From: Rhynchobatus australiae
Lineage: Eukaryota
NCBI GenBank assembly: GCA_034780895.1
Contig: JAUZTB010000076.1
Location: 89,094,347 to 89,158,346 of the forward strand
DNA length: 64,000 nucleotides
Direction of reading: 5' to 3'
A program made the translations under genes and the position numbers. Under the pieces are notes generated by a model that made no database searches, had not been told where the DNA came from, and worked only from the letters and a program-made list of their open reading frames with translations. How positions within the stretch are numbered: position 1 is the first letter of the stretch; every line of letters begins with the position of its first letter. Shown here in pieces: positions 2,140-2,768 of this stretch.

Positions 2140-2768
2140 TAGCCCTGATGTAGGTTCTCGAGCTGAAATGTCCTCAGCATCTGTGGAAGCTGCCTGACCT
2201 GCTGAGCTCCTCCGGCAGATTGCTCTTTGTTCCAGGTTACNNNNNNNNNNNNNNNNNNNNNNNNNNNNNNNNNNNNNNNNNNNNNNNNNNNNNNNNNNNN
2301 NNNNNNNNNNNNNNNNNNNNNNNNNNNNNNNNNNNNNNNNGGGTATGATAGGCAGGTGGGGGAGGGGGAGAGTGGGAGTGATGTAAGAATCTGGGAAGTG
2401 ATAGATTGAAGTGACAAAGGACTAAAGAAGATGGAATCTGATGGAGAGGATGGTGGACCATGGAATAAAGGGGAGGAGGTGAGGAAGGGAACTAGGGGGA
2501 GGAGTATGTGGGTGATGGGCAGATGGGGAGGGTAAAGGGAAGTGGTTGGTGGGATAAGGTGGATAAAAAGGGACTGAGGGGTCATGCCATCAAGTTGGAG
2601 ACTTCCATGGCGGGGTCCTTGATCCTTCATCCTTGACAGTCCTGATGAAGGGTCTCGACCTGAATCATTGACTGTCCAACTCCCTCCATAGATGCTGCCT
2701 GACCCACTGAGTTCCTCCAGCGCTTTGTGTTACTCCAGATTTCCTGCATCTGCAGTCTCTCTTGTGGC
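2140..2768. mobile_element. Cluster of Penelope-like terminal-repeat copies (two plus-strand copies flanking a reverse-oriented purine-rich segment)
   Basis: Plus copies at about 2140-2240 and 2635-2768. 2341-2575 is a purine-rich tract that appears to be the reverse orientation of the kind of pyrimidine-rich segment preceding the repeat at 36575-36700. Confidence 0.65.

Follow-up and report, generated by a model that had tools for sequence, protein, structure and literature searches.

A minimal hammerhead motif in the 3' terminal repeat of an abundant Penelope-like element family of Rhynchobatus australiae, carried here by a short, 5'-inverted copy predicted to be inactive

The window, a 64,000-nt stretch of contig JAUZTB010000076.1 of Rhynchobatus australiae, contains a minimal type-I hammerhead motif which very probably belongs to the 3' terminal repeat (pLTR) of a Penelope-like element (PLE) encoding a reverse transcriptase (RT) followed by a GIY-YIG endonuclease, likely of the Neptune clade, in a copy that is short, 5'-inverted and predicted to be dead. 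The linkage to a coding element, the structure and abundance of the family, the pattern of truncation and inversion and the lesions of the window copy were all observed directly. The copy itself is an ordinary fossil and its motif is of a known kind; through the family, the known range of PLE hammerheads now reaches an elasmobranch, in which copies are very numerous.

The motif at 2635–2676 had been described in a sequence-only reading, whose letters and coordinates were exact on re-reading and whose hammerhead is real; the 7-bp stem I and the AGG/CCT stem II given there are peculiar to this copy and are not those of the family. In the family register, CUGAUGA is followed by an unpaired A and a GGGU/RCCC stem II closed by a 4-nt loop, and stem I has 5 bp (3 bp in some subfamilies); none of the 29 nearest relatives compared (30 of 41 matches fetched, minus the window itself) has GACAGTC directly before the core. 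A true stem III, proposed as very short, is absent, its place being held by the palindrome ACGU at 15.1–16.1. Compared with the family, the copy carries A15.1 to U (2665), G16.2 to A (2667), C11.1 to U (2661) and C17 to U (2669); the T at 2661 is best explained by CpG decay. With U at 15.1 the invariant A15.1–U16.1 pair is gone, and the same change together with A at 16.2 replaces the palindrome, without which a dimeric helix III could not form, by UCAU. The copy thus shows GAAT and UCAU in place of an intact core (GAAA, A15.1–U16.1) and palindrome, and because both the pair and the palindrome are lost it is predicted to be catalytically dead and is likely inert, in agreement with the earlier view that activity would belong to the family consensus and not necessarily to these copies. 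A relaxed minimal-hammerhead descriptor (GAAN allowed) matches the window only at 2635–2676, while 60 first-order Markov simulations of window length gave three matches in total, none with a stem I of at least 5 bp; the descriptor requiring GAAA has no match in the window, and an Rfam scan of the window returned no hammerhead covariance-model match at E<=10. The features are listed in Table 1.

Table 1. Hammerhead motif, its host insertion and other segments of the family in the window
Feature	Positions	Strand	Detail or basis
Minimal type-I hammerhead	2637..2674	+	Sequence, family columns, fold, descriptor scan
Stem I of this hammerhead	2637-2641/2670-2674	+	CAGTC/GACTG
Core C3-A9	2642-2648	+	CTGATGA
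Unpaired A after core	2649	+	
Stem II	2650-2653/2658-2661	+	
G12-15.1	2662-2665	+	GAAT; A15.1 to U at 2665
15.2/16.2	2666/2667	+	G to A at 2667 breaks ACGU palindrome
U16.1; H17	2668; 2669	+	Predicted cleavage site 2669/2670
GA lengthening stem I to 7 bp	2635..2636	+	Pairs with 2675-2676; copy-specific, at inversion junction; 0 of 29 nearest relatives
3' terminal repeat (pLTR) incl. distal tail	2624..2766	+	Profile columns 327-470, 122.6 bits; 85% identity to L031 over 144 nt
Inverted 5' part of same element: last GIY-YIG codons (2582-2613, SLQLDGM) and pyrimidine-rich 3' UTR	2341..2613	-	blastn
Family copy, U4A-type core, decayed, G12 lost	3..121	+	
Family copy, old, partly deleted	2141..2234	+	
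Head-to-head inverted pair	3688..3889		3799-3688 (-; U4A core, GAAA intact) and 3793-3889 (+)
Head-to-head inverted pair, 5'-truncated	23364..23542		A9C-type subfamily by downstream letters
Family copy, A9C core, G12 lost	30046..30125	+	
Family copy, U4A core, G12 lost	36629..36831	+	About 90 nt of upstream UTR
Two family fragments flanking N stretch, 5'-truncated, without CUGANGA	61798..62027	-	

Longer copies of the repeat extend upstream into a pyrimidine-rich UTR and then into GIY-YIG-like coding sequence. When loci were chosen by endonuclease sequence alone (30 of 40 matches fetched), the repeat was found 262–490 nt downstream on the same strand in 24 of the 30 (23 of 29 minus the query's own locus); of the six loci lacking it, one is cut off by the end of its contig, and a readable core is missing from three of the 24. 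RT motifs including DKG lie further upstream of the endonuclease. A natural open frame of the family of 423 aa has 95 full-length homologues, the best of which (P0007, 52% identity) is above the Pfam cut-offs for both RVT_1 and GIY-YIG, and locus L269, collinear with residues 227–953 of P0007 (E 2e-134), runs on into the pLTR, with a second hammerhead 2.3 kb upstream that marks a partial tandem. The linker contains CX4CxxC (CNRTRCHTC in L129) and the endonuclease CCHH. The order of RT and C-terminal GIY-YIG with CCHH is thus present, as read from degraded copies and P0007, together with a hammerhead-bearing pLTR downstream of the ORF, 5' truncation, inverted and partial-tandem copies and a tail. 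RT and GIY-YIG remnants at fixed distance and strand, inverted pairs and two 3' ends therefore bear out the earlier proposal of a hammerhead-bearing Penelope terminal repeat. Among 20 loci examined of 150 RT matches there is no intact full-length ORF; their longest N-free frames have 423, 407 and 365 aa, most longer "open frames" being runs of N. Pfam applied to the family's own degraded frames gives RVT_1 below the cut-off (E 0.001–0.01) and no GIY-YIG match, and a PDB sequence search found nothing.

In the accessible text of PMC8557442 the CX2-5CxxC linker is shared by Neptune and Nematis and absent in Poseidon, so that the linker and CCHH point to Neptune or Nematis; since the accessible text of a 2026 preprint reports only Neptune and Poseidon from vertebrates (bioRxiv 10.64898/2026.07.22.740005), the clade is likely Neptune, as judged from motifs. 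The family resembles the EN+ PLEs of the Neptune clade (Craig et al. 2021, PMC8557442) in its DKG RT, linker and C-terminal GIY-YIG with CCHH, and EN+ PLEs generally in heavy 5' truncation, partial tandems, adjacent inverted copies and a 30–40-nt tail, and differs from those described there in having no intact ORF among the 20 loci examined. For the endonuclease part, the closest proteins with names come from a stingray and a devil ray. Annotations of ray genomes list endonuclease-end fragments of the family (P0001–P0004 and P0006) as host proteins, one of them as "divergent protein kinase domain 1C isoform X2", and these are likely exonised or mis-annotated repeats. Immediately upstream of one family element, L271:4224-5816 (-) holds the remains of a second Penelope-like element, more divergent (~40% to P0001).

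A profile built from 20 endonuclease-anchored copies was used to scan 112 stretches of about 10 kb each, placed at round coordinates on 11 large contigs with the small contigs left out (959,697 non-N bases), and gave 162 terminal matches in 132 loci, i.e. 138 loci/Mb (bootstrap 115–162), with no match in a reversed-sequence control of the first 72 stretches. Extrapolated to the 2.23-Gb assembly, this density corresponds to roughly 3x10^5 loci. The column majorities of 161 matches (one duplicate alignment dropped) read pyrimidine tract, CAGUC, CUGAUGA, unpaired A, GGGU, 4-nt loop, ACCC, GAAA, CGU, C/U and GACUG. CUGANGA with one unpaired nucleotide before helix II is the majority state apart from the U4A and A9C subfamilies, and the helix II opening G10.1–C11.1 and the following GAAA are family-level features, with CpG decay at 11.1 and G12. 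Intact copies carry the palindromic ACGU at 15.1–16.1 followed by C or U (UH cleavage site), and the exact canonical descriptor has 1,679 matches genome-wide, compared with none for the reversed pattern. Among 53 complete sampled copies, eight keep the core, three of these also both stems, and none also the palindrome. In three of four intact natural copies a core-paired rod is modelled at about 2 kcal/mol below the open form, which is in line with inactivity as monomers. A lower mismatch rate in the core than in the tail (8% vs 16%) was set aside as a sign of selection, the comparison being circular.

The family agrees with the published PLE minimal-hammerhead consensus (PMC4209133), which has an extra nucleotide after A9 and a palindromic 15.2–16.2, in its U-rich leader, short helix I, CUGANGA with one unpaired nucleotide, G10.1–C11.1, GAAA, palindromic 15.2–16.2, UH site and thousands of solo copies. 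Such motifs are known in Neptune, Poseidon and Xena elements of fishes, and the Acropora Neptune entry has the same geometry, with a helix II of 4 bp and a 4-nt loop. Unlike the family, the published alignment of 56 PLE motifs includes no cartilaginous fish and no U4A or A9C subfamilies. The density found here implies far more copies than the 4,000–9,000 descriptor hits published for coelacanth and Xenopus, although these counts are not like for like. No paper on this elasmobranch family was found in a literature search, to which Lunse et al. 2017 (which may list shark examples) and Repbase were external, and the main text of the manta-ray preprint contains no mention of Penelope or ribozymes by term search.

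Directly at helix I, a pyrimidine tract ends in CAG (family columns 325–342; window 2624–2640). This arrangement is similar to the intron end reported for Penelope of D. virilis, and it also reads as initiator-like. Use of the site as a spliceosomal 3' splice site, as in D. virilis, was considered but is not proposed, as 5' ends of copies form a small peak at column 342 (9 of 151) yet are spread over 330–359.

Eighty-eight of 161 matches were classed into six groups by the letters downstream of the hammerhead. C3, G5, A6, G8, G12–A15.1, U16.1 and the palindrome predominate in each of the six, and N7, the loop, H17 and outer stem I vary between them. One subfamily carries U4A (10 of its 12 copies) and two carry A9C (22 of their 24 copies together); among sampled copies retaining those positions, the shares are about 16% and 27%, respectively. 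Exact genome matches number 302 for U4A and 250 for A9C, compared with 15 and 13 for the control substitutions U4G and A9U; since U4G creates a CpG, that control is biased low. Endonuclease sequence precedes U4A in 4 and A9C in 1 of 23 loci, and the variants hence belong to the coding element. Canonical cores are found in the two subfamilies with the least divergence (~7% and ~10%, from small samples). In A9C a register shift is possible, where the next A may act as A9. Neither variant was found in the literature searched, which did not extend to Lunse et al. 2017, where variants may be listed; the accessible text of PMC3088659 mentions only U4C among such core variants. Stem I shows a compensatory change from C2.1–G1.1 to U2.1–A1.1 (44 C–G, 13 C–A, 4 U–G and 13 U–A among 76; Fisher p 1e-4), which is probably one event, partly CpG-driven and confounded by CpG decay. 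Stem II is conserved, with one U–A/U–G change and no compensatory subfamily; its double changes number 15 and 12 genome-wide and pair in 9 of 15 and 3 of 12, mostly by the double transition expected from decay.

The 3' ends of the copies fall into two clusters (39 and 76 of 162 matches) about 35–40 nt apart, and head-to-head inverted pairs account for 24 of 132 loci. Of 151 scored 5' ends, 64 lie in columns 330–359, at the hammerhead 5' edge, and only 5 in columns 370–379, around the cleavage site. The rate of 5' ends per nucleotide at risk is 0.012–0.027 in columns 330–359, 0.007–0.008 in 300–329 and 0.002–0.003 downstream; in columns upstream of these, inverted neighbours distort the rates. 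An initial count of 73 of 92 was too high, owing to an older subfamily whose upstream sequence is divergent, and was set aside; the count over 151 ends errs in the opposite direction, as inverted neighbours lengthen alignments. As 5' ends gather at the hammerhead edge and few lie at the cleavage site, we infer that uncleaved RNA is the usual template, and the edge itself would be a transcript start or an enzyme stop. A corresponding pair of RT start sites downstream of the hammerhead defines the PLE tail in Frangieh et al. 2024 (PMC11167929), and the family shares this tail with the Anolis carolinensis Poseidon element PAc studied there; PAc is of a different clade, lacks the linker Zn finger and has been assayed, whereas the family described here is known from its sequence.

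A mechanism can be proposed from published PLE work. Source elements would be transcribed from partial tandems, and the element's protein would nick DNA and start reverse transcription at one of two tail sites, which lie about 90 and 125 nt 3' of the core. Reverse transcription would often stop near the hammerhead 5' edge and leave stumps of about 130 nt, in some cases accompanied by an inverted partner. Cleavage by the intact motif would be weak and would occur only in a dimer via the ACGU palindrome or with protein help, and inserted copies would decay neutrally, losing their CpG sites first. Weak cleavage of source transcripts, dimeric or aided by protein, and initiation within the tail are taken from the accessible parts of PMC4209133, PMC6765202 and PMC11167929.

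The hammerhead may be vestigial even in source elements, cleavage being unneeded for transposition and the structure being kept for protein binding, as a promoter or as a template end. This would concern the role of the motif and is compatible with its origin in a PLE terminal repeat; it is regarded as possible, although doubtful. The amplification of subfamilies with U4A or A9C cores, their presence behind endonuclease sequence and the avoidance of the cleavage site by copy ends argue for it, as does the Anolis PLE, whose insertion in vitro was unaffected by hammerhead mutants in the accessible text of PMC11167929. Against it stand the canonical cores of the two least diverged subfamilies and the predominance of the core positions named above and of the palindrome in every group, in contrast to N7, the loop and H17, which vary; moreover, A9C is possibly a register shift and the U4G control is biased low. 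A further proposal, equally tentative, is that the U4A and A9C lineages gave rise to tens of thousands of copies and that insertions stop at the 5' boundary of the uncleaved ribozyme and not at its cut site, so that retrotransposition in vivo would run on uncleaved RNA with the hammerhead edge as transcript start or RT stop; either catalysis would be dispensable, or the minimal core would tolerate U4A and a G8–C–A9 register absent from the literature searched. The amplified variants and the insertion-end statistics bear on whether hammerhead cleavage matters for Penelope transposition, and the family would be a natural experiment on the purpose of PLE hammerheads if this proposal were true.

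The repeat had also been called retrozyme-like, i.e. a non-autonomous, short non-coding unit amplified via hammerhead-cleaved and circularised RNA. Most copies are indeed short and non-coding (~130 nt), and animal non-LTR retrozymes, which are PLE-derived and carry type-I hammerheads, are reported from one chondrichthyan in the accessible text of bioRxiv 10.64898/2026.07.22.740005. Two intact motifs also stand 76 nt apart on one strand at L224/L225 (G000:C1:2828230-2828339), a natural tandem with a third partial unit upstream that adjoins inverted RT-thumb sequence, and a 125-nt back-joint that links the tail with the beginning of stem I is shared by 15 RNA reads. Non-LTR retrozymes form tandem arrays of non-coding units, whereas the family described here is dispersed and its copies grade continuously into RT and endonuclease coding sequence as 5'-truncated ends of a coding element. 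Same-strand neighbours number only 5 among 162 sampled matches, with no tandem arrays of non-coding units, although a gapped assembly may collapse arrays. The scarcity of 5' ends around the cleavage site points the same way, and the back-joint lies away from that site and is compatible with a genomic partial tandem. The name therefore does not fit the copies, and a retrozyme origin is considered improbable. An apparent 371-nt tandem on C2 was discarded, as the same sequence stands on both sides of an N gap and is a gap-flanking duplicate.

The PLE family is represented in RNA on both strands by 6,869–19,460 of 11–13 million reads examined, in a manner that fits passive read-through. These reads show no pile-up of starts or ends, and no joint at the cleavage site is seen among the joints listed (46 further joints exist beyond them), ordinary RNA-seq being a weak test of cleavage and a poor one for such joints. 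The absence of RNA-seq read ends at the cleavage site is shared with PAc, as far as described in the accessible text of PMC11167929. At the window copy, 97–99% of aligned reads continue into unlike sequence and thus derive from other copies, and its unique flanks (2773–2880 and 3259–3636) have zero depth in all three raw RNA runs, at 96% likeness and from few samples. These flanks weigh against the idea that the window copy is an active ribozyme, or one co-opted by the host, with stability lent by its 7-bp stem I, as do the loss of the A15.1–U16.1 pair and of the palindrome and a minimum free energy (MFE) fold that pairs the core into a rod. The intact CUGAUGA and a local fold (-17.2 kcal/mol, with the helix 2635–2641/2670–2676 present) steadier than shuffles (z -3.2) are in its favour, and such activity is judged highly improbable.

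A chance resemblance to a hammerhead, for which the lack of an Rfam match, the little covariation and intact copies folding no better than shuffles (z -0.3 to -1.1) could be cited, is scarcely credible and already largely refuted by a full match to the published consensus at the position where PLEs carry the motif, with most core positions constant while free positions vary between subfamilies and no comparable match in 60 simulations.

The PLE insertion that carries the motif is an inverted case, with the endonuclease end and UTR on the minus strand and the hammerhead and tail on the plus strand. Its inverted part is 83% identical to L031 over 193 nt and, at the endonuclease end, 84–92% identical over 26–32 nt to endonuclease-anchored copies (blastn), and it meets N at 2241–2340, which hides the left end of the insertion. 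At the inversion junction (2613–2632, minus strand), a short degenerate inverted remnant of the hammerhead 5' half is present, as in several sampled inverted pairs, and suggests fold-back priming of cDNA.

Twelve segments of the family were identified in the window by the profile search. The sequence-only reading had named seven copies besides the motif, and all of them are members of the one family. That reading's statement that several have intact GAAA holds for three of these seven (2145, 3760 and 62005), while no window copy passes the GAAA descriptor. Some of the core mutations noted in the copies, namely U4A (9, 3760 and 36707) and A9C (30045), are inherited subfamily states and not decay.

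Eight window ORFs of at least 130 aa have no Pfam match. Longer two-copy repeats are found in the window at 9156–9826, 44957–45364 and 46127–46811, and one ORF examined in the first has no Pfam match. A second dispersed repeat of about 300 nt lies at 2905–3230, with related stretches at 37781–38079, 40134–40347 and 61251–61472; its right end resembles the reverse complement of a tRNA-derived SINE head, and it may be an HE1 SINE.
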